Origin: a virus | Lineage: Duplodnaviria > Heunggongvirae > Uroviricota > Caudoviricetes | Direction: 5' to 3' (one strand) | DNA: 28,769 nucleotides | IMG/VR virus record: IMGVR_UViG_2529292720_000011 | In this document: one piece after another, positions 4,819-12,755 of the stretch | Numbering within the stretch: the stretch's first letter is position 1 | How the letters are laid out: each line of letters opens with the position of its first letter | Position numbers and translations under genes: made by a program | The notes under the pieces: model-generated | Database searches by the model: none | What the model was told of the DNA's origin: nothing | Seen by the model: only the letters and a program-made list of their open reading frames with translations

Positions 4819-4920
4819 GAAACCAGAACATGCACACACAAAAAAACCGCTTGCCATGCCGCAATCAGTCAGGTTACATTTCCGCTGCACCTCATAAAAC
4901 GGGTGCCGGGTTTCGCAGCC

Positions 4921-4961
4921 CGCTGACAAACGTAGCGCACAACCGCGCCAGCGGTTTTTTT
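4921..4961 (+). terminator. Candidate intrinsic terminator within early operon
   Basis: cgctg...gcgcacaaccgcgc...cagcg stem followed by G plus TTTTTTT (4955-4961). Confidence 0.4.
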
Positions 4962-5140
4962 GTGCGTACTGTATCGCCACGTCTTTTTCGCATCTGAATT
5001 ATGGTGGGGCGTACGGGGCCGACTTCGGTCGGGCCGGGTTCTGCGTTTGCCGGTACTGCGAACCTCGTACGTCTCGCCACCCACAGTTTCGCAGCTCTGG
5101 ATGGTGAGGTTTCAAAACTTACACACGTAGAGGCCACACC

Positions 5141-5371
5141 ATGGCAAACCGCAAACAGCACCGCGCTATCGCGGAGCGTCGTCACATCCAGACTGAAATC
5201 AACCGCAGACTTTCCCGCGCATCACGCGTCGCGCAAATCATGCACATCAATATGCTGCATGAGCGTAGCTGCGAACTTTCAAACCTCTATTCATCCGCTG
5301 TTTTCAGTTATCTGGCGGATGATCTGCGCGAGCTTCAGCAGCTCATCCAGCAGCAAAACAAACTCCATTAA
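5141..5371 (+). CDS. Hypothetical basic helical protein (76 aa)
   Basis: GAGG 7 nt upstream of the ATG; Arg/Lys-rich N-terminus. Confidence 0.4.
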   Translation: MANRKQHRAIAERRHIQTEINRRLSRASRVAQIMHINMLHERSCELSNLYSSAVFSYLADDLRELQQLIQQQNKLH

Positions 5372-5443
5372 TTCCTGTTCCGGGCCTTTCCTGCACCTTG
5401 CGGCGGGAGGCCTTCGCACATCTGTAACAAGAGGATTGCCGCA

Positions 5444-5809
5444 ATGATTCTCGCCAACGACTTTCTTGAATACCTGCTCAACACAGAACGTGATCTTGCC
5501 GTTCGCGTGCGTGAACGTTATGACATGTACCTGAAATCCCTGCCTGTACCGCAGCTCGCTGACGGAAAGATTGTTATTGATGGTCGCTACATGATTGACA
5601 GCCACGAGGGAAATTACAGGCTTTACCGCATTGAAGGTGGCACCCCGTCCGTTATTGGCATTTACCAGCGCCCATCCTCTGCAATCGTCGATGTGATTGC
5701 CGACAGCATCCGCATCACACATCGCCATGCCGACACAGAAGACACCGTGCTGGAAATTCAGCGGCTGGCTACAGTCTGCCGCGACACCCTGAATGGCATA
5801 ACGAAGTAA
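5444..5809 (+). CDS. Hypothetical protein preceding the replication gene (121 aa)
   Basis: ORF immediately upstream of gpA, same strand. Confidence 0.45.
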   Translation: MILANDFLEYLLNTERDLAVRVRERYDMYLKSLPVPQLADGKIVIDGRYMIDSHEGNYRLYRIEGGTPSVIGIYQRPSSAIVDVIADSIRITHRHADTEDTVLEIQRLATVCRDTLNGITK

Positions 5810-5815
5810 ATCACT

Positions 5816-8623
5816 ATGACGGCAGAGTACATCAGGGACTGGCAGCAACCGCGCCACGCAGTGGGGCGTGAAGGAACGGGGATCCCCGCTCCTGAATCCG
5901 CGCTTTCCTCCTGGCTGGATGCCTACCGGGCAGAGAACGAGCGCTGCCAGGAAATGGCTGATGCGGCGTTCTCCGCCACGCCGCTGGGCAACCTGATTAA
6001 TAAAAGCCTGGACGCACAGGAAAAACAGGACAAAACCATCACACTGGCAGGAGACGCCAGAAAGCAGGTACGCGGCGCGGTGGATGAAGCCATGGCCTCG
6101 CTGCGCCTGCTGCCATCCTATCTGCGCGATCCGCTTATTCGCCACCTCTCCTTCCTGCGCAAAAAACAGGAATCTGACCGCCAGAAAGGTAAAAAGAACC
6201 AGCAGGCTGAACGCTACGCGCGCGGGACCCTGCGCAAAATATTCGAACGTCTGGATCGCACTGACGGGCGCTGGCTGACACCGGGTTATCGCTCCCTTGC
6301 CGGGCGCGAACGCCTGGACGATTTGCTTTCCCTGCCGCAGCTCAACAAGCACCAGATACAGACGCTGGCCACCATGACGGCGGCGATGTTCAGCAGCACC
6401 TTCGAAACACTCTGCGATGGCTTTGGTGCCAGAGATGGCGAGCTGACCATGGATGTAATGTTGAAGGCTTACCGGATGCTGGCCCGTATCGCATTACGCC
6501 TGCACATCATGCCGCCACATTACGAAGCCCTGAACAAGAGCGATCCGGATACGGAACTGTTACCGGGCGCAATCCTTCGCCTGACCTGTGCGGAATGGTG
6601 GAAACGCAAATTGTGGCTGTTACGTTGCGAGTGGAGAGAAGAACAACTCCGCGCCGCCTGTCTGGTTTCCAGAAAAACATCACCCTATCTGAGCCAGGAC
6701 GCGTTAAGCGAGTTTCGCGCACAGCGCGAGAAAACACGCGATTTCCTGAAAAGTTTCATGCTGGAAAACGAAGACGGGTTCACGATTGATCTCGAGACAG
6801 TGTATTACGCGGGAGTAAGTAACCCGGTTCACCGTAAGGCAGAAATGATGGCCACCATGAAGGGGCTGGAACTTCTGGCCGAAGCCCGTGGCGACAAAGC
6901 GGTGTTTCTGACTGTCACCTGCCCGTCAAAATACCACGCCACAACAGAGAACGGTCATCCGAATCCCAAATGGAACGGGGCCACCATGCGCGACTCCAGC
7001 GATTACCTGGTTAACACGTTTTTTGCGGCGGTCCGCAAGAAACTGAACCGCGACGGCCTGCGCTGGTATGGCATCCGCACGGTGGAGCCTCACCATGACG
7101 GCACCGTGCACTGGCATATGATGGTCTTTGCACATCCGGACGAGATTGAAACCATCGTGTCCCACGTCTGCGATATTGCCATTCAGGAAGACCGCCACGA
7201 GCTGGGCGATGACATAACTCCGCGTTTTAAGGCGGAGTACGTAGACGGCTCAAAAGGCACACCAACCAGCTACATCGCCACCTACATCGGAAAGAACCTG
7301 GACAGCCGCGCCGTGGATGGCATCGACCAGAAAACGGGCAAGCCACGCGTTGACCACGAAACCGGAAAATCAATGGCCGAGAGCGTGGAACGCGCCATCG
7401 GCTGGGCGCGCCTTCACCGGGTCCGCCAGTTCCAGTTCTTTGGCATCCCCTCCCGTCAGGTGTGGCGTGAACTCCGCCGCCTTGCCAGCCAGATGGCACG
7501 CAACCCGGAAGGCCCGCAACGGCTGAAGGATGACGCAATGGATGCGGTACTCGCTGCCGCTGATGCAGGATGTTTTGCCACCTACATAGAGAAACAGGGC
7601 GGCGTACTTGTTCCACGCAAAGACTACCTGATTCGCACCGCCTACGACCTCGCCGATGAGCTGAACGATTACGGCGAACAGAGCGTACAGATTTACGGGA
7701 TCTGGTCACCACTCATCGGGGAATCCTCCCGTGTGTGCACGCATCCGGATAACTGGAAGCTGGTAAGACGCAAACCGGAAGCGGAAGACAGCGCCCGCGA
7801 AAATGGTTTTGACCTTCAGGGCGGCCCTGCCGCCCCTTGGACTCGTGGCAATAACTGTCCCCGTGTACAGGAAACAGGCAACAGCGGGACAGAACAGTCG
7901 AAAGAACGGCCAGCACCGTGGCCGCAGCTTCCTGACGGCGTTGAAGTGAACGAATGGATGCGCTCACTGAAACGGCACGAACGCCGGGCGCTGATGCGTT
8001 CGCTTCGTGACAAACAGGTAAAAAACAGCAGTGATGAAATGCAGAGCTGGACACAGAGCCGCAAACAGCAGCGGCCTTTGCCTGATAACCACGAATTACT
8101 CGCTAAAGAATGGCGGGAGTCTGCCGAATCTCTCGGCCTGCATATCGGTGAACAGCAGATGCAGCACCTGCTACGGGGCGGCAGCCTGTACGTTGACGGC
8201 AGCATCATTGCACCGCAGGGATATGAAATTGTACGCAAACCGGATACCCGCCCGGACAGCCGAATCACGCAGCTCTGGCAGCACCTGAGCCGTAATCACG
8301 GCGTAAGCAGCACGGAGATCCGCCATAACCCGGTCGCCAGCTATCTGGCACAGCTGGGGGCATCAGACCCCGAAGCCGCCGCACGCCTGGCATCCGCACT
8401 TCAGCAGGATCAGAACACCATGAAAACACCCGTTACCGTGCTTTCTGACATGCTGCGCGCCATCCGCGACGCAGAGCACGCACAGAGAATCAGTGAAACC
8501 ACTGAACGCGCCAGCCGCAAAGCAGACCTGCTGCAGGGTGGCCTGACCAGTGGAAACAAAAAACAGACAGAAACGGGATCCACAAATCCCGTAAATGAGC
8601 AAAAAACGCGCCGCGATATATGA
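5816..8623 (+). CDS. A: Replication initiation endonuclease gpA (rolling-circle initiator, P2 A family), 935 aa
   Basis: Motifs VTCPSKYHA and TVEPHHDGTVHWHMMVF (HUH-type histidine motif) plus tyrosine-rich catalytic region; position after the early operon as in P2/186. Confidence 0.85.
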   Translation: MTAEYIRDWQQPRHAVGREGTGIPAPESALSSWLDAYRAENERCQEMADAAFSATPLGNLINKSLDAQEKQDKTITLAGDARKQVRGAVDEAMASLRLLPSYLRDPLIRHLSFLRKKQESDRQKGKKNQQAERYARGTLRKIFERLDRTDGRWLTPGYRSLAGRERLDDLLSLPQLNKHQIQTLATMTAAMFSSTFETLCDGFGARDGELTMDVMLKAYRMLARIALRLHIMPPHYEALNKSDPDTELLPGAILRLTCAEWWKRKLWLLRCEWREEQLRAACLVSRKTSPYLSQDALSEFRAQREKTRDFLKSFMLENEDGFTIDLETVYYAGVSNPVHRKAEMMATMKGLELLAEARGDKAVFLTVTCPSKYHATTENGHPNPKWNGATMRDSSDYLVNTFFAAVRKKLNRDGLRWYGIRTVEPHHDGTVHWHMMVFAHPDEIETIVSHVCDIAIQEDRHELGDDITPRFKAEYVDGSKGTPTSYIATYIGKNLDSRAVDGIDQKTGKPRVDHETGKSMAESVERAIGWARLHRVRQFQFFGIPSRQVWRELRRLASQMARNPEGPQRLKDDAMDAVLAAADAGCFATYIEKQGGVLVPRKDYLIRTAYDLADELNDYGEQSVQIYGIWSPLIGESSRVCTHPDNWKLVRRKPEAEDSARENGFDLQGGPAAPWTRGNNCPRVQETGNSGTEQSKERPAPWPQLPDGVEVNEWMRSLKRHERRALMRSLRDKQVKNSSDEMQSWTQSRKQQRPLPDNHELLAKEWRESAESLGLHIGEQQMQHLLRGGSLYVDGSIIAPQGYEIVRKPDTRPDSRITQLWQHLSRNHGVSSTEIRHNPVASYLAQLGASDPEAAARLASALQQDQNTMKTPVTVLSDMLRAIRDAEHAQRISETTERASRKADLLQGGLTSGNKKQTETGSTNPVNEQKTRRDI

Positions 8624-8699: not shown

Positions 8700-9659
8700 A
8701 TGAAAATTTGTATCGACGACGGCTCCACCAACATCAAGCTGGCATGGACTGAGAACGGCGAACGCCGCAACGCCATCAGCCCGAACAGCTTCAAGTCGGA
8801 ATGGTCTGCGCCGTTCGGTGGCACGCATCCCGCGAACTACATGCTTGATGGCGTGCGCTATGGCTTTGATCCGGTCAGCGATCGTTTTGTCCAGACGACT
8901 GACACGCAATACCAGTACAGCGATGTGAATGTAATCGCCATTCATCACGCGCTGGTCAAATCAGGCATCACGCCACAGGAGGTGGATGTGGTTGTCACCC
9001 TGCCACTGAGCGAGTATTTCGACACAAACGCACAGCCGGACATGGCCAACATCAACCGCAAAAAAGCGAACGTCATGCGCCCGGTGGAGTACCAGAACGG
9101 CGAAGCATTCACTATCCGTAACGTACGGGTTATGCCTGAATCCATTCCGGCTGGCTTTAAGGCACTGGCTGACATGAGTCCGTTTGAATCCCTGCTGATT
9201 GTGGATTTGGGCGGAACCACGCTGGATGTGGCAAAGGTTCAGGGGCAGCTGGCAGGTATCAGCCAGGTGTTTTGCGATCCAAACGTAGGCGTTTCCCTGA
9301 TGGCTGATGCCGTGCTGTCGGTGATGGCCACTAACGGTATGCGTACCAGTCACCACATCGCCAATACCATTATTGAGCACCGTCACGATGAAGCCTGGCT
9401 GCGCCAGCACATTCACAATGACGCGCATTACAACAGCCTGATGGCGGTTATTCGTGAAAAGGAGGAGACACTGAAACAACGAGTGATCCGCGCGCTGGCG
9501 GGTTTTTCCGGTTACGGGCGGGTGATGGTTGTCGGTGGAGGGGCGGAGATTGTGGCACCCGCTATCCGCGAAGCCTGCGGAGTTAATGCGACTTTCATCG
9601 CGGACGGGGTGCCACAGTTTGCTCTGGTTAATGGGCTGTACGCAATGAACAAGGAGTAA
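8700..9659 (+). CDS. parM: Actin-like segregation ATPase, ParM/StbA family
   Basis: N-terminus MKICIDDGSTNIKLAW...ISPNSFKSEW matches the R1 ParM N-terminus as recalled (MLVFIDDGSTNIKLQW...ISPNSFKREW); phosphate-2 LIVDLGGTTLDVA and adenosine VMVVGGGAEIV motifs present; 319 aa. Confidence 0.85.
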   Translation: MKICIDDGSTNIKLAWTENGERRNAISPNSFKSEWSAPFGGTHPANYMLDGVRYGFDPVSDRFVQTTDTQYQYSDVNVIAIHHALVKSGITPQEVDVVVTLPLSEYFDTNAQPDMANINRKKANVMRPVEYQNGEAFTIRNVRVMPESIPAGFKALADMSPFESLLIVDLGGTTLDVAKVQGQLAGISQVFCDPNVGVSLMADAVLSVMATNGMRTSHHIANTIIEHRHDEAWLRQHIHNDAHYNSLMAVIREKEETLKQRVIRALAGFSGYGRVMVVGGGAEIVAPAIREACGVNATFIADGVPQFALVNGLYAMNKE

Positions 9660-9663
9660 ACCA

Positions 9664-9975
9664 ATGACGACACCAACCAGAAGAATAAGTTTCTATCTGA
9701 AGCCAGCTGCCGTCAAGAACGAAGGAGAAGCATGCGCATGGCTGGACAGCCTTACACCAGAAGCCCGCAAAAGCGGCCAACGCGTGGCTTTTCTGGCCGG
9801 GCTGGCACTTCTGAAGACGAATCCGGCAGAGGCTTACCGACTGGCCGCATGGGCTGATGATGAGATGTTACCTGTGACACAAATCAGCTCAAAAAAGTTT
9901 GAAGCACAGTCTGCACCAGTGGCTAAGATAACCAGCCAGATGGCTGGGAATATCCGGGCGTTATTTCCTGGGTAA
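9664..9975 (+). CDS. parR: ParR-like RHH centromere-binding adaptor (103 aa)
   Basis: Immediately downstream of parM; RRISFYLKP...WLDSLTPEARKSGQRVAFLAGLALL...NIRALFPG parallels R1 ParR as recalled (RRTIAFKLNP...TLDSIPQGERSRL...ALTAGLALY...ILRSLFP). Confidence 0.6.
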   Translation: MTTPTRRISFYLKPAAVKNEGEACAWLDSLTPEARKSGQRVAFLAGLALLKTNPAEAYRLAAWADDEMLPVTQISSKKFEAQSAPVAKITSQMAGNIRALFPG

Positions 9976-10102
9976 AAGCATCTGCGCGAAAAATGCTCAC
10001 ATTTATAGAAACAGTATCATTCCATTTGGCGCACTTACTTCAATAATCGATCTGTTAAACAAATAGATTGTCTATTATCTATCGATTAAAACGATCAATT
10101 AT

Positions 10103-10131
10103 CTTGACAGTAATGTGCCTTTTTGTAAGAT
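10103..10131 (+). promoter_or_regulatory. Candidate sigma70 promoter
   Basis: TTGACA, 17-bp spacer, TAAGAT (TTGACAgtaatgtgcctttttgtAAGAT). Confidence 0.35.
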
Positions 10132-10236
10132 CGTTCGCATTGTGAGCGACAAGATAATTGCGCGGCATTGTCCATGCAAAACGCCCCAATAGCAGCAACT
10201 ATTGGGGCGTAGAACTCGGTCGGACTCACTTAACCT

Positions 10237-10323
10237 GATATGCGTGCCTTCCGAAGTAAATCAAAATGTGCGTCGTATATTTTATTGCTTACACGCACCT
10301 CTGTAAAGGCACGCATATTTTTC
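10237..10323 (+). other. Structured RNA leader / terminator-like element
   Basis: 13-bp arms atatgcgtgcctt (10238-10250) and aaggcacgcatat (10306-10318) enclose a nested hairpin gtgcgt/acgcac and are followed by a T-run; sits 17 nt upstream of the GTG at 10340. Confidence 0.4.
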
Positions 10324-10339
10324 CTATGAGGTAAATAAA

Positions 10340-10609
10340 GTGCGGGCTAAAACAGGTATTTGCAAGAACCCTCATCGTTATAACCCAACATTTCTGTCTC
10401 TCCCTGAATATCAAGGACAAGAAGGTCGGCACAAATGCGCTGCCTGTGCTTTTGAGCTAGGCATAAAAGATGCGCTTGAAGGACGCGCTATGGCTCAGAA
10501 TGATTTAGTTTTAGCTAACATTCCGTTTAGCCAGGCTGGAACTGTAAGGCACAGAGATGCTTATGAAGCATATGTTAGTGGTTGGCGATTAATACACAGC
10601 AACAATTGA
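10340..10609 (+). CDS. Hypothetical small Cys/His-containing protein (89 aa)
   Basis: GTG start with GAGG 8 nt upstream; C-x(3)-H ... H-K-C-A-A-C pattern may form a small zinc-binding knuckle; followed by a strong terminator. Confidence 0.5.
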   Translation: MRAKTGICKNPHRYNPTFLSLPEYQGQEGRHKCAACAFELGIKDALEGRAMAQNDLVLANIPFSQAGTVRHRDAYEAYVSGWRLIHSNN

Positions 10610-10616
10610 TATTTTT

Positions 10617-10642
10617 GAAGCGCCGATAAGGCGCTTTTTTTG
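10617..10642 (+). terminator. Rho-independent terminator
   Basis: gaagcgcc-gata-aggcgc stem-loop followed by TTTTTTT. Confidence 0.65.
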
Positions 10643-10643
10643 T

Positions 10644-10673
10644 TTGCACGATAGTGCACAAGTTTGCACAATT
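10644..10673. repeat. Three direct repeats of TTTGCAC/AGTGCAC with 10-bp periodicity (iteron-like)
   Basis: tttgcacgat / agtgcacaag / tttgcacaat read directly; a fourth GTGCAC at 10736-10741. Confidence 0.5.
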
Positions 10674-11169
10674 TTTTTGAACGACTTTTTGTACTTCCGG
10701 CCCGCGTGGCGGCTGGATCCGTCAAGGATCCGTACGTGCACAAAAAACGCGTTTTTTCTACGCGCAGGTGACGGGGGAACAGCCCGCGTTTCAGGGGGTA
10801 AATAGCATTCCCTGAACGATGTCGCAGAGACACAACAGAATGGCCATATTTCTCACGCTGAGCATGAAAAAGGCGTGAGGGCTTTTGATTTGATGGGGGG
10901 AAAGGTAAGGCCGTCAAAATCGCACTGAGGCAGCGAGAACATACAGTCAACGTGGTGGGATTGCGTAAGAGTCTGACCGTCGATGGTGGCGATAAACTGG
11001 AAGGCGTCGTGAAATTATCTGATTGATACAGGAGCTGGAGAGTCGGGGCATAAATTTTTTATGCCCCGGCGAAGCAGCAGACAAGCGAAGCGCGTCAGCG
11101 ATACGGCACCTTGCCGACCATACTTCGTAAGTGCAAAATACGAGCAAAGAAATCAATGGAGGCTGTCTT

Positions 11170-11694
11170 ATGGTCATTAATTACAAGCAGTTAAGAGAAA
11201 AACGGGAGCAGGTAAAGGAGAGCTTTCGCCGCAATGAAGATCTGACCCCGCTTGTACGCCTTGCCCAGGGCATTGTTGATGCTTATGAAATCTCGCTGGA
11301 GCTGCCATCACAGACCTGGACAGATAGCGACGGTAATCGCCAGCATTACGTTTCATGCGGACTGGAAGCAGCCGAAGGATTTCGCAGAATGCCTTTATCT
11401 CAGATCCCTGCCGCTACCCCCAAAGCAAGGGGCGGCAATGATGAGCGAAAACTGATTTTCAGCATTGAGACAGTGGTTGACGACACACCTGGCGAAGTCG
11501 CCTTCGTGCATACTCCTCTTTCGATCGCAATGTATAACGATGAAATACAGGTTCGCGTTAATAATAATATCGTGCCACTTAAAGAAGGTAATTCACCCTA
11601 CACCACCGTTTGTGAAGCCATTCAATATTACGTTTTCTCTGAAATTGATAATCTCAAGCCTGACGGCACCCAGAAAATGGTTCAGCTCTGGTAA
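11170..11694 (+). CDS. Hypothetical cargo protein (174 aa from ATG 11170)
   Basis: GGAGG 7 nt upstream of ATG 11170 (ORF track starts at 11131); convergent with portal gene; no motif recognised. Confidence 0.5.
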   Translation: MVINYKQLREKREQVKESFRRNEDLTPLVRLAQGIVDAYEISLELPSQTWTDSDGNRQHYVSCGLEAAEGFRRMPLSQIPAATPKARGGNDERKLIFSIETVVDDTPGEVAFVHTPLSIAMYNDEIQVRVNNNIVPLKEGNSPYTTVCEAIQYYVFSEIDNLKPDGTQKMVQLW

Positions 11695-11726
11695 AAAGGA
11701 CAGCCCCATCACGGGGCTGTTTTTTC
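11693..11726. terminator. Bidirectional intrinsic terminator between convergent genes
   Basis: AAAAA-ggacagcccc-atca-cggggctgt-TTTTTT; overlaps the last codons of the portal gene. Confidence 0.6.
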
Positions 11727-12755
11727 ATCAAGAAGAGCATAAGAGTTAAAACGGATCACCTCTTCGCCAAGCCAGTCATTGATGTGCTTCATGGCCTCCA
11801 TAACGGGCATCAGCTCGTTAATTGCGTAAACCCGCGCGGCCTTCTCCACATCACCAAACGCACTTTTTTCGCCCGGCATCGCCCCCATCAGTTGCGGCGG
11901 AACACGGTGCGCAGCCAGCACATCATCACGGGATGCCGCCTTAACATTCATGAACTCATCTTTTGCGGTGATCTGCTGGAACGGCAAAATTTGCACCCCC
12001 TCTTTGCCCCCGTTGGGCGCATGAATGAGCACGTTTTTAAACGCACCACCACCACGTGCCCCCTGTAGCGTTTCTTTCAGGGAGTCCATGCTTTCGCGGT
12101 TTACCTGCGCTGCACCGATGTAGATGATGCACCCGGCGTGGGATCCGTTGTCGTAGTACAGTTTTCTGAACATGTCCGCCGAATGAGAAAGGCTGGCCGA
12201 GAGTAATGCGCCAAGATATTCCGGCATGCCGTAGATTTCCTGGTTAATATCCGGATTCATCAGGTGGCACACTTTGCCAGGACGAAACTGAAACGCGTCC
12301 TTGCCATCCTGCACATACCACCATGATTCAAGATCGCTTCCGCGTCGCATGTATTTCGCCAGGGCGTGCCGTAATTTAAGCGGTTCGCCGAGCATATTGC
12401 TCCGAAGCTCAAGGAATGCGTTACCGAACACAAACCAGTCCAGCGCCAGCGCCGAGAAATCCTGCCGGGAAAGCAGCGGGTGCGGAATATAGCAGCCGAG
12501 CAATACATTGCGCTTAAAGTAAAGCGCAGACTGATGCCAGGACGTTTGCCGGGCAGCTCTTGCCAGACCGTACCAGTCCACCGGGGTTTCATACCACCGC
12601 CCGTTATCAGCACAGTACATATTGTCCAGCAGGTCATGCCCGGTCAGGCGATAAGGACCATCAAATGTGAATGCACTGAGCGATGATTCTTTCCTGAGCG
12701 CATCAGCGAGATCAATGCGTGAACTCATGCGCACTTTTTTATTTTTTCTGCTCAT
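11709..12755 (-). CDS. Q: Portal protein gpQ (P2 Q-like)
   Basis: 348 aa (P2 Q about 344 aa as recalled); adjacent to and co-oriented with the terminase large subunit. Confidence 0.8.
   Translation of the reverse strand: MSRKNKKVRMSSRIDLADALRKESSLSAFTFDGPYRLTGHDLLDNMYCADNGRWYETPVDWYGLARAARQTSWHQSALYFKRNVLLGCYIPHPLLSRQDFSALALDWFVFGNAFLELRSNMLGEPLKLRHALAKYMRRGSDLESWWYVQDGKDAFQFRPGKVCHLMNPDINQEIYGMPEYLGALLSASLSHSADMFRKLYYDNGSHAGCIIYIGAAQVNRESMDSLKETLQGARGGGAFKNVLIHAPNGGKEGVQILPFQQITAKDEFMNVKAASRDDVLAAHRVPPQLMGAMPGEKSAFGDVEKAARVYAINELMPVMEAMKHINDWLGEEVIRFNSYALLDEKTAP

Follow-up and report, generated by a model that had tools for sequence, protein, structure and literature searches.

In type I toxin-antitoxin systems (hok/sok of plasmid R1, ldr/rdl, symE/symR), a small gene with a long folded leader that hides its translation start is accompanied by a short two-hairpin antisense RNA, which is expressed from a strong promoter inside the leader, and the whole travels as a stand-alone cassette on mobile elements. 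In the temperate phage P22, sar/ant (immI) and sas/sieB rely on a short cis-antisense RNA from a convergent promoter to control a gene with an accessory or exclusion function. Plasmid countertranscripts (CopA/CopT of R1, FinP/traJ, pT181/pIP501) are two-stem-loop RNAs complementary to the stem-loops of a leader, an arrangement in which loop-loop initiation is possible, while IS10 combines convergent promoters, the stable antisense RNA of its RNA-IN/RNA-OUT pair and a Dam-controlled promoter, pIN. Here we analysed the region that precedes the gene for an 89-amino-acid (aa) protein in the IMG/VR virus record IMGVR_UViG_2529292720_000011. The record, a stretch of 28,769 nucleotides (nt) that we call the window and whose positions serve as coordinates throughout, is an Escherichia coli prophage of the P2-like group (Peduoviridae, Xuanwuvirus). 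As far as its sequence can tell, the region resembles these systems in several respects and is best read as a previously undescribed sense/antisense RNA pair, akin to the sar/ant system of P22 or to type I toxin-antitoxin loci.

A sequence-only reading of the region had pointed to a promoter, a 9-bp hairpin and a nested structure that ends in a T-run ahead of the 89-aa gene, and had proposed a transcription attenuator, a riboswitch-like leader or a plus-strand small RNA (sRNA) of roughly 190 nt, for instance an RNA antitoxin or a regulator of that gene. The idea of an RNA regulator holds in that this is an RNA-level control region in which the sense promoter is genuine and the 5' untranslated region (UTR) is both structured and conserved; the regulatory RNA itself, however, most likely comes from the minus strand. 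Literature searches by accession, by hairpin sequence, in enterotoxigenic E. coli (ETEC) H10407 transcriptomes and for P2-like antisense RNAs returned no description of such a module, and no comparable module is listed in a review on phage sRNAs from 2025 (PMC12197685).

A predicted antisense promoter conserved among diverged leaders

Back-translated pattern searches with the 89-aa protein retrieved about 47 diverged viral loci and one locus on a Providencia chromosome. The 200-260 nt upstream of the gene showed an architecture common to the window and nearly all gammaproteobacterial phage copies (47-63% protein identity), although the sequences differed. Going downstream, a sense promoter and a 5' hairpin named P0 came first, followed by a purine motif, by P1, which is a hairpin rich in GC, by a linker rich in A, by a long hairpin with an inner one (the P2 hairpin) and finally by the ribosome-binding site; the same architecture stood ahead of homologues of the gene in about 38 diverged phage or island loci. 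Close E. coli variants were uninformative, with 28 of 665 columns variable and none of these in either promoter or in the arms of the P2 hairpin. Joint MAFFT and RNAalifold analysis over all clades yielded only 3 pairs, with the arms out of register; structures were compared by per-clade RNAalifold, anchored hairpin extraction and covariance-model alignment.

In a 24-sequence leader alignment, GTAAAG and A...TA were the only invariant columns. Read on the minus strand, they are the -35 box and positions T1, A2 and T6 of the -10 box of a putative promoter at 10279-10307 (-35 TTTACA 10307-10302, 17-bp spacer, -10 TAAAAT 10284-10279), which a promoter scan also found in the window. All 38 leader-bearing loci presented TTTAC(A/T), a spacer of 17 bp (18 in L119) and TAnnnT (CACAAT in L114 and L117), and in all 38, including the distant L114, L117 and L119, the promoter preceded the start codon by 57-70 nt. 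Sequence varied freely in the spacer and, within the -10 box, at the inner positions (variants include TAAAAT, TAGACT, TACGAT, TACAAT, TAGAAT, TAATCT, TAGTCT and TAAACT), and the proteins of the loci sharing the fixed 17-bp promoter were only 47-63% identical. Since the boxes and their spacing are fixed while the spacer and the inner -10 positions vary, the conservation pattern, judged from the alignment, is that of sigma-70 recognition and not that of an RNA pocket. Promoter-like matches in the region were by themselves not above chance (2 found against 2.5 expected in the promoter scan); both promoters rise above chance because they are conserved in diverged homologous loci. The nested structure with 13-bp arms (ATATGCGTGCCTT/AAGGCACGCATAT) is indeed present at 10238-10250/10306-10318; its invariant bases are the -35 and -10 boxes of the predicted minus-strand promoter.

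A probable terminator hairpin and a predicted two-hairpin antisense RNA

The 9-bp hairpin noticed earlier (ccccaatag/ctattgggg) was found at 10184-10192/10199-10207 and extends to 11-12 bp (10182-10192/10199-10209). It constitutes P1, which on the minus strand lies about 65-95 nt downstream of the antisense promoter and, at 10174-10210 in the window, comprises an 11-12-bp GC-rich stem (10209-10199/10192-10182), the loop UUGCUG and then UUUUGCAU. Canonical U6-7 tails followed P1 on the minus strand in the distant L114, L117 and L119 and in a Serratia island. Model-free extraction of P1 from 36 unique sequences gave 374 Watson-Crick positions, 7 A.C oppositions, which are G.U pairs on the minus strand, and a single plus-sense G.U that was a bulge artefact; most stem positions showed 2-4 different Watson-Crick pair types. 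This hairpin thus covaries strongly, and its wobble pairs fit the minus strand. Because the wobble pairs and the U-tail both belong to that strand, P1 is read from the sequence as the terminator of an antisense RNA of about 97 nt, and this is also the best reading of the 9-bp hairpin that had been assigned to the sense leader. On the plus strand, UAGAACUC comes after the hairpin, so P1 would not stop sense transcription.

The predicted cis-antisense RNA, whose ends were placed from the promoter and terminator positions, would run on the minus strand from about 10272 to 10176. Its 5' end is single-stranded, and two hairpins follow, the internal stem-loop SL1 and the terminator. Over its full length it can pair with 10176-10272 of the mRNA leader, which includes the 5' arm of the P2 hairpin, and its fold has an energy of -35.6 kcal/mol (z = -3.3). 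This two-hairpin architecture recurred in all clades. A covariance model built on SL1 and the terminator (R1) gave one match per locus, always opposite the gene, in 26 out of 26 loci; the model misses the most distant versions (Serratia/L119-type), which were recognised by eye. In the R1 alignment, 76% of the cells were paired, compared to 63% in shuffles, and the covariation score reached 0.383 against 0.193 in shuffles (0 out of 500 reached it) and at most 0.147 in slid controls. Double changes were present at 16 of the 22 pairs, and the wobble count, taken in the minus sense, was 70 G.U to 14 A.C. As far as sequence comparison goes, P1 and SL1 are thus conserved in the minus sense, and we are confident, short of certainty, that an antisense gene exists.

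One further observation concerns the start of this RNA. In most other clades (L003, L080-L113 and L122), the predicted antisense RNA begins with a GATC-containing palindrome (CGAGAUCUCG or GUGAUCAC), and a second GATC is located in the antisense promoter spacer, about 30 bp off; both pair in the inner hairpin of the mRNA. Both are missing in the window (CGCACA) and in L075 (GAGCUC).

The predicted sense transcript and its structured leader

The promoter reported as TTGACA-17-TAAGAT at 10103-10131 has both boxes, although it starts at 10104 and its spacer is 16 nt long (-35 TTGACA 10104-10109, -10 TAAGAT 10126-10131, plus strand). An equivalent promoter was present in all clades with a spacing of 16-17 nt (TTGACA, TTGATC, TTGAAG or TTGAGG, followed by TAGGAT, TATAAT or TATTAT). 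The mRNA of the 89-aa gene would start near 10138, which gives a structured 5' UTR of about 200 nt (10138-10339) whose element order was the same in about 38 loci. An RNAfold-type check, as had been proposed, gave -73.6 kcal/mol for the plus-strand RNA 10132-10345, compared to -53.3 +/- 4.5 kcal/mol for 200 dinucleotide shuffles, none of which was as good (z = -4.56).

Close to the mRNA 5' end and outside the antisense RNA, P0 (TTGCG...TGCAA, 10158-10179) was more stable as plus-strand RNA in 18 out of 21 representatives (mean -10.5 versus -6.2 kcal/mol). The P2 hairpin (10238-10318) consists of outer arms at 10238-10250/10306-10318 and an inner hairpin at 10268-10277/10290-10298; its 3' arm overlaps the antisense -35 box and its 5' arm is the target of the antisense RNA. 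The outer stem was more stable as plus-strand RNA in 15 of the 21 representatives (mean -17.3 versus -15.1 kcal/mol). It kept the same topological position in every clade with a different sequence: AUAUGCGUGCCUU/AAGGCACGCAUAU in the window, CAGGGUUUUACA/UGUAAAGCCCUG in the Providencia type, AAAGCAUUA..GGGCUUUAUU/AAGUAAAGCCC..UAAUGCUU in clade C3 and GUGCU-GAAUGUUUU/AAAGCGUUCGGCAC in clade C4. By the same kind of comparison, P0 and the P2 hairpin are conserved in the plus sense, and since P1 and SL1 favour the minus sense, both transcripts appear to carry selected structure. The translation start region (10319-10342) contains the U-run (10319-10323), which lies as noticed before 17 nt ahead of the GTG at 10340, and the Shine-Dalgarno (SD) sequence GAGGT (10328-10332). 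In the minimum free energy fold of the window leader, the SD was paired with AACCU (10232-10236). An intrinsic terminator called by the terminator scan at 10617-10637 (plus strand) closes the single-gene cassette.

The proposal of a riboswitch or a known leader family found no counterpart in Rfam 15, where a search of 9900-11200 at gathering and permissive thresholds gave no gathering-level match. The best sub-threshold matches were all on the minus strand, namely ctRNA_pGA1 (22.1 bits, threshold 45), sar (22.0, threshold 43) and Spot_42 (18.5, threshold 80), and the only gathering-level matches in the window, isrK and C4, were about 5 kb from the studied region. A retron was dropped as there was no reverse transcriptase, a type III toxin-antitoxin system as no tandem repeat was noticed by inspection, and a leader peptide as, also by inspection, no short leader open reading frame (ORF) recurring in other clades was noticed.

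Proposed mechanism of repression

In the model that we favour, the strong sense promoter would make an mRNA in which a leader of about 200 nt presents P0, P1 and the P2 hairpin ahead of the ribosome-binding site, and minus-strand transcription would start near 10272 and run left into P1. The antisense RNA would be constitutive in the lysogen and would pair with the leader, starting through the perfectly complementary P1 loops and then invading the 5' arm of the P2 hairpin, so as to cover P1, the linker and that arm. Being complementary to the 5' arm, the antisense RNA carries a copy of the 3' arm and could displace it. We infer that the freed 3' arm would pair with the SD or the start-codon region and occlude the start; the partners in the window would be GCAC...AUAUUU of the freed arm and AAAUAAAGUGC, which spans the GTG start. 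The long duplex would likely be an RNase III substrate, and the 89-aa protein would be off either way, while convergent transcription and Dam methylation of the GATC over the sense -10 may add control. Expression would be expected when the antisense RNA is lost or outrun, for example if an infecting phage shuts off the host or if the prophage is lost or induced. Repression via induced occlusion of the start region is the likely and favoured route, with duplex cleavage and promoter interference as likely contributors. Taken whole, a two-strand RNA control module that represses a 'moron', here an accessory gene standing alone in a P2-like prophage, seems to us a probable account of the region.

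Accessibility was simulated by constrained folding with the antisense target blocked. Once freed, the 3' arm of the P2 hairpin paired with the SD region in the C3 and Providencia-type clades; in L082-L091 this gave CCCUG...CAGGG, followed by UUUU. In clades C2 and C3, SD accessibility was 0.35-0.81 with the target free and 0.11-0.35 with it blocked, and blocking never raised accessibility by more than 0.06. In the window, the unpaired probability dropped from 0.75 to 0.46 for the start codon and from 0.54 to 0.45 for the SD. The answer of the SD-accessibility simulation differed among clades.

Several points weigh against this model. The simulated effect of the antisense RNA on the SD was small in the window and nil in clade C4, whose SD hairpin (GGCACCUU/AAGGUGCU) shares its 5' arm with the P2 hairpin and is predicted to form in either state. 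The tail of the antisense terminator is U-poor in most clades (UUUCCCUUAU, UUCCCUAUAU), and both transcription starts as well as the antisense 3' end are predictions. The R1 covariation alignment was fitted to the modelled structure, and the model-free P1 count is for this reason the cleaner test. Moreover, the window antisense RNA would open the P2 hairpin, behind which the U-run stands; if that hairpin were a real sense terminator, expression would be raised. Finally, any biological reason for such tight control is a guess. By analogy, a labile antisense lock on a potentially harmful or time-critical protein that occupies defence slots would work on the same principle as abortive-infection modules and type I toxin-antitoxin systems.

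Alternative explanations

The main rival to induced repression takes the last of the structural points above as its core: the P2 hairpin and the U-run at 10319-10323 would form a sense attenuator, and pairing of the antisense RNA with the 5' arm would permit read-through, so that the antisense RNA activates. In its favour, the 13-bp stem of the window is directly followed by AUAUUUUU, the antisense target includes the 5' arm, and U-rich tracts also follow the 3' arm in clade C4 (CUUAUUUUU), L003 (UUAUUUAU) and L075 (AUUUUAUU). The fit to clades other than the window is nevertheless poor. In L082-L091 the P2 hairpin is followed by AAAUGCAUA, and the U-run comes after an alternative hairpin formed only once the P2 hairpin has opened; in clade C4 the U-rich tract is the loop of the hairpin that sequesters the SD, and the position of the tract relative to the P2 hairpin differs among clades. 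The terminator-like reading of the outer hairpin and T-run is thus not conserved as such across clades. In addition, few terminators have an interior as large as that of the P2 hairpin (55 nt), the scan for terminators passed over it, and antisense RNAs that activate by antitermination are rare, all of which leaves the attenuator improbable, though less so for the window. A purely cis-acting leader, be it a riboswitch, a thermosensor, a protein-binding attenuator or a plus-strand sRNA, would explain the strong plus-strand fold (z = -4.56) and the conservation of P0 and the P2 hairpin in the plus sense, and would turn the minus-strand motif into a coincidence or an RNA motif. We hold it to be very improbable, given that the invariant bases follow a sigma-70 pattern (TTTACA, a fixed 17 bp and TAnnnT with variable inner positions), that P1 favours the minus strand, that distant clades have canonical minus-strand terminators and that there is no Rfam match.

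Control could also be exerted mainly on the DNA, with interference between face-to-face promoters about 135 bp apart and with Dam and SeqA acting on GATC clusters, the RNA being secondary. The convergent promoters are indeed conserved, and clades C1-C4 of the cassette contain 2-5 GATC sites per 260 nt against about 0.9 expected, a 3-6-fold enrichment. These sites occupy conserved sense-promoter positions and, in C2-C4, also flank the antisense -10; in the window, the GATC at 10129-10132 overlaps the sense -10. The homologues of the 89-aa protein, besides, sit in Dam-type (D12) restriction-modification operons. On the other hand, strand-specific wobble and compensatory changes in P1, SL1, P0 and the P2 hairpin show selection for RNA structure on both strands, the antisense promoter of the window has no GATC, and interference alone needs no dedicated terminator to shorten the antisense transcript, which makes control mainly at the DNA level a quite improbable explanation. 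A minus-strand transcript acting chiefly in trans on mRNAs of the host or of competing phages, its overlap with the leader being incidental, has precedent in the prophage sRNAs with trans targets (PMC12197685), and the predicted RNA does have a single-stranded 5' end and a terminator hairpin. It is, however, always linked to the same gene family and its sequence diverges along with the leader; no seed is conserved across clades except the promoter-proximal GATC palindromes, which are missing in the window. This last explanation is hardly credible to us.

Differences from the described systems

Compared to type I toxin-antitoxin systems, the predicted antisense RNA is complementary to the mRNA of the presumed toxin counterpart in silico, as the predicted promoter and terminator bracket 10272-10176. 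Unlike their products, which are small (usually <60 aa) hydrophobic or membrane peptides or proven nucleases (SymE, RalR), the protein encoded here is 89 aa long, hydrophilic and predicted to be soluble. The predicted antisense RNA also stops about 55 nt upstream of the SD without covering it, and no sequence or Rfam relationship was found. On plasmid R1, hok/sok (parB) accompanies parMRC; the cassette of the window adjoins parM and parR, which recalls that pairing. As regards P22, the weak Rfam match to sar lands on the minus-strand terminator hairpin and a homologous cassette lies beside cI in a P22-like phage, but sar overlaps the ribosome-binding site of ant, the regulated protein is unrelated, and 22 bits against a gathering threshold of 43 do not make the RNA a member of the family.

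The three segments of the leader (target arm, 3' arm and SD or terminator partner) may be likened to attenuation of the pT181/pIP501 type: in silico, binding favours a hairpin just upstream of the start in clades C2 and C3, with a modest effect in the window and none in C4. In contrast to plasmid countertranscripts, there is no replication or transfer gene and the U-run of the window follows the P2 hairpin, not an alternative hairpin; the ctRNA_pGA1 match (22 bits, threshold 45) does not indicate membership either. With IS10 the locus has in common the convergent promoters, a stable (here predicted) antisense RNA and the GATC at 10129-10132 over the sense -10, and by analogy Dam may act on the sense promoter in a similar way. 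The RNA-OUT of IS10, in turn, covers the start region of the transposase, whereas here the antisense RNA spans about 10176-10272 and the SD and start codon lie at 10328-10332 and 10340.

The 89-aa protein and its relatives

The gene presumed to be under control (10340-10609, plus strand, GTG start), which we call X, belongs to phrog_3941 and encodes a predicted soluble protein. No match was found for it by sequence in Pfam, NCBIfam, PADLOC or the PDB. Its AlphaFold2 model (mean predicted local distance difference test score, pLDDT, 90.8) is a hydrophilic, soluble alpha/beta (helix/strand) fold for which the PDB held no matching fold. A single-sequence, word-indexed protein search returned only 2 near-identical proteins, exhaustive HMMER gave 173 cluster representatives at E <= 1e-3, and a profile search reached at least 1494 clusters, all unnamed or labelled "hypothetical protein". 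The protein contains an internal tandem repeat (LP..Q.G..RHK.A..AY..G), and the residues C8, H12, C33 and C36, conserved in the family, suggest a zinc site.

Outside phages, Dam-type restriction-modification operons repeatedly contained a homologue as an additional gene, and no antisense leader was seen at these sites. The arrangements included D12 methylase, R.DpnII, X and N6_N4 methylase in Bacteroidales; D12 methylase, a PD-(D/E)XK_11 nuclease and X; and D12 methylase, a DUF6996/6997/7226 protein and X. In L004-L006, L118 and L126-L128, the X homologue recurred in third or fourth place in operons with a D12 (Dam-like) methylase, DpnII-type ones included, and in L004 and L005 the X domain formed the N-terminus of a 279-aa protein. 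X appears to be an undescribed accessory component of D12 methylase restriction-modification systems. It was also fused to DndB, WYL, NOV_C and HNH_2 domains, and these fusions, together with membership in Dam-type operons, suggest that X acts on DNA, in restriction or in defence.

The cassette, comprising the promoter, the leader with the antisense unit, the gene and the terminator, moves as a unit. It was located after parMR in P2-like phages, directly after cI in the P22-like Salmonella phage BIS08P22, where it occupies the site equivalent to lambda rexAB, and elsewhere beside lysis genes or umuDC. Tentatively, the cassette could be a type-I-like switch that locks a probable zinc-binding DNA-recognition protein, borrowed from Dam-type (GATC) operons, and releases it to target DNA or restriction systems, with abortive infection, exclusion or anti-restriction as the outcome; we regard this reading as possible but on balance unlikely. 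In it, Dam would read the methylation or replication state of the DNA and the labile antisense RNA would read the transcriptional health of the cell.

If the repression model is true, the antisense RNA represents a family new to Rfam and to the literature searched, and its control module gives initial access to the function of a protein family that is widespread (at least 1494 clusters), has no functional annotation and in phages holds classic defence slots, namely the gpA-gpQ hotspot of P2 and, by cI, the site that corresponds to lambda rexAB. It would extend the RNA lock of type I toxin-antitoxin and sar/ant systems to a soluble, probably DNA-directed protein, and would provide a compact leader model in which the antisense promoter is built into the regulatory hairpin of the mRNA itself. 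The value of the finding lies mainly in a restriction-modification-linked protein being placed under the control of such a module.

Genomic setting

The studied region recurred with 98-99.9% identity in the Escherichia phages 520873 and 503458 as well as in 166 out of 5426 complete E. coli genomes, every copy being chromosomal; the copy in ETEC H10407 is 99.9% identical. It lies between replication gene A (5816-8623, plus strand) on its left and portal gene Q (11709-12755, minus strand) on its right, and the interval between P2 gpA and gpQ is the P2 defence hotspot described by Rousset et al. (PMC9122126). Within the hotspot, the order was parM (8700-9659, plus strand; PF06406/PF21523), parR/stbB (9664-9975, plus strand; PF10784), the studied region, the 89-aa ORF, the terminator and a 187-aa ORF (11131-11694, plus strand; phrog_5091). 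The latter had no match in Pfam, NCBIfam or PADLOC, and neither the two ORF products nor ParM and ParR matched any defence-system model of PADLOC-DB 2.0. The 187-aa ORF is annotated in E. coli E2855 and not annotated in phage 520873; the hotspot may thus carry it as a second, variable cargo gene.

The plasmid-type partition pair ParM and ParR/StbB is complete in the P2 hotspot, which is odd for an integrated element, and the prophage bearing parMR was chromosomal and never plasmid-borne in 172 out of 172 E. coli occurrences. Between parR and the cassette, 10043-10102 holds an imperfect inverted repeat of 26 nt (73% complementary, 8-nt gap) that touches the sense -35 and contains GATC at 10049 and 10093. 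The repeat is kept in the L075-L079 relatives, which also have parMR, and could be a ParR centromere or operator, or an operator of the sense promoter.

Other observations concern the boundaries and neighbours of the region. Replication gene A is a single 935-aa ORF in the window, corresponds to 3 coding sequences in the RefSeq record of phage 520873, and is interrupted in E. coli E2855 by an IS3-family element. The record of Escherichia phage 500465-2 starts at about 10513 of the window, where the 89-aa ORF nears its 3' end, and from this point on the match is 98%; this edge is either a hotspot recombination boundary or the boundary of a prophage record inside the gene. Further left, at 4887-5084 (plus strand), isrK (4887-4961, 69.6 bits) adjoins a C4 antisense RNA (4997-5084, 80.4 bits), both at Rfam gathering level and upstream of the ORFs 5001-5447 and 5444-5809. 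The pair looks like an immunity/antirepressor RNA module of the P1/P7 immI or Gifsy-1 isrK type in a P2-like prophage.

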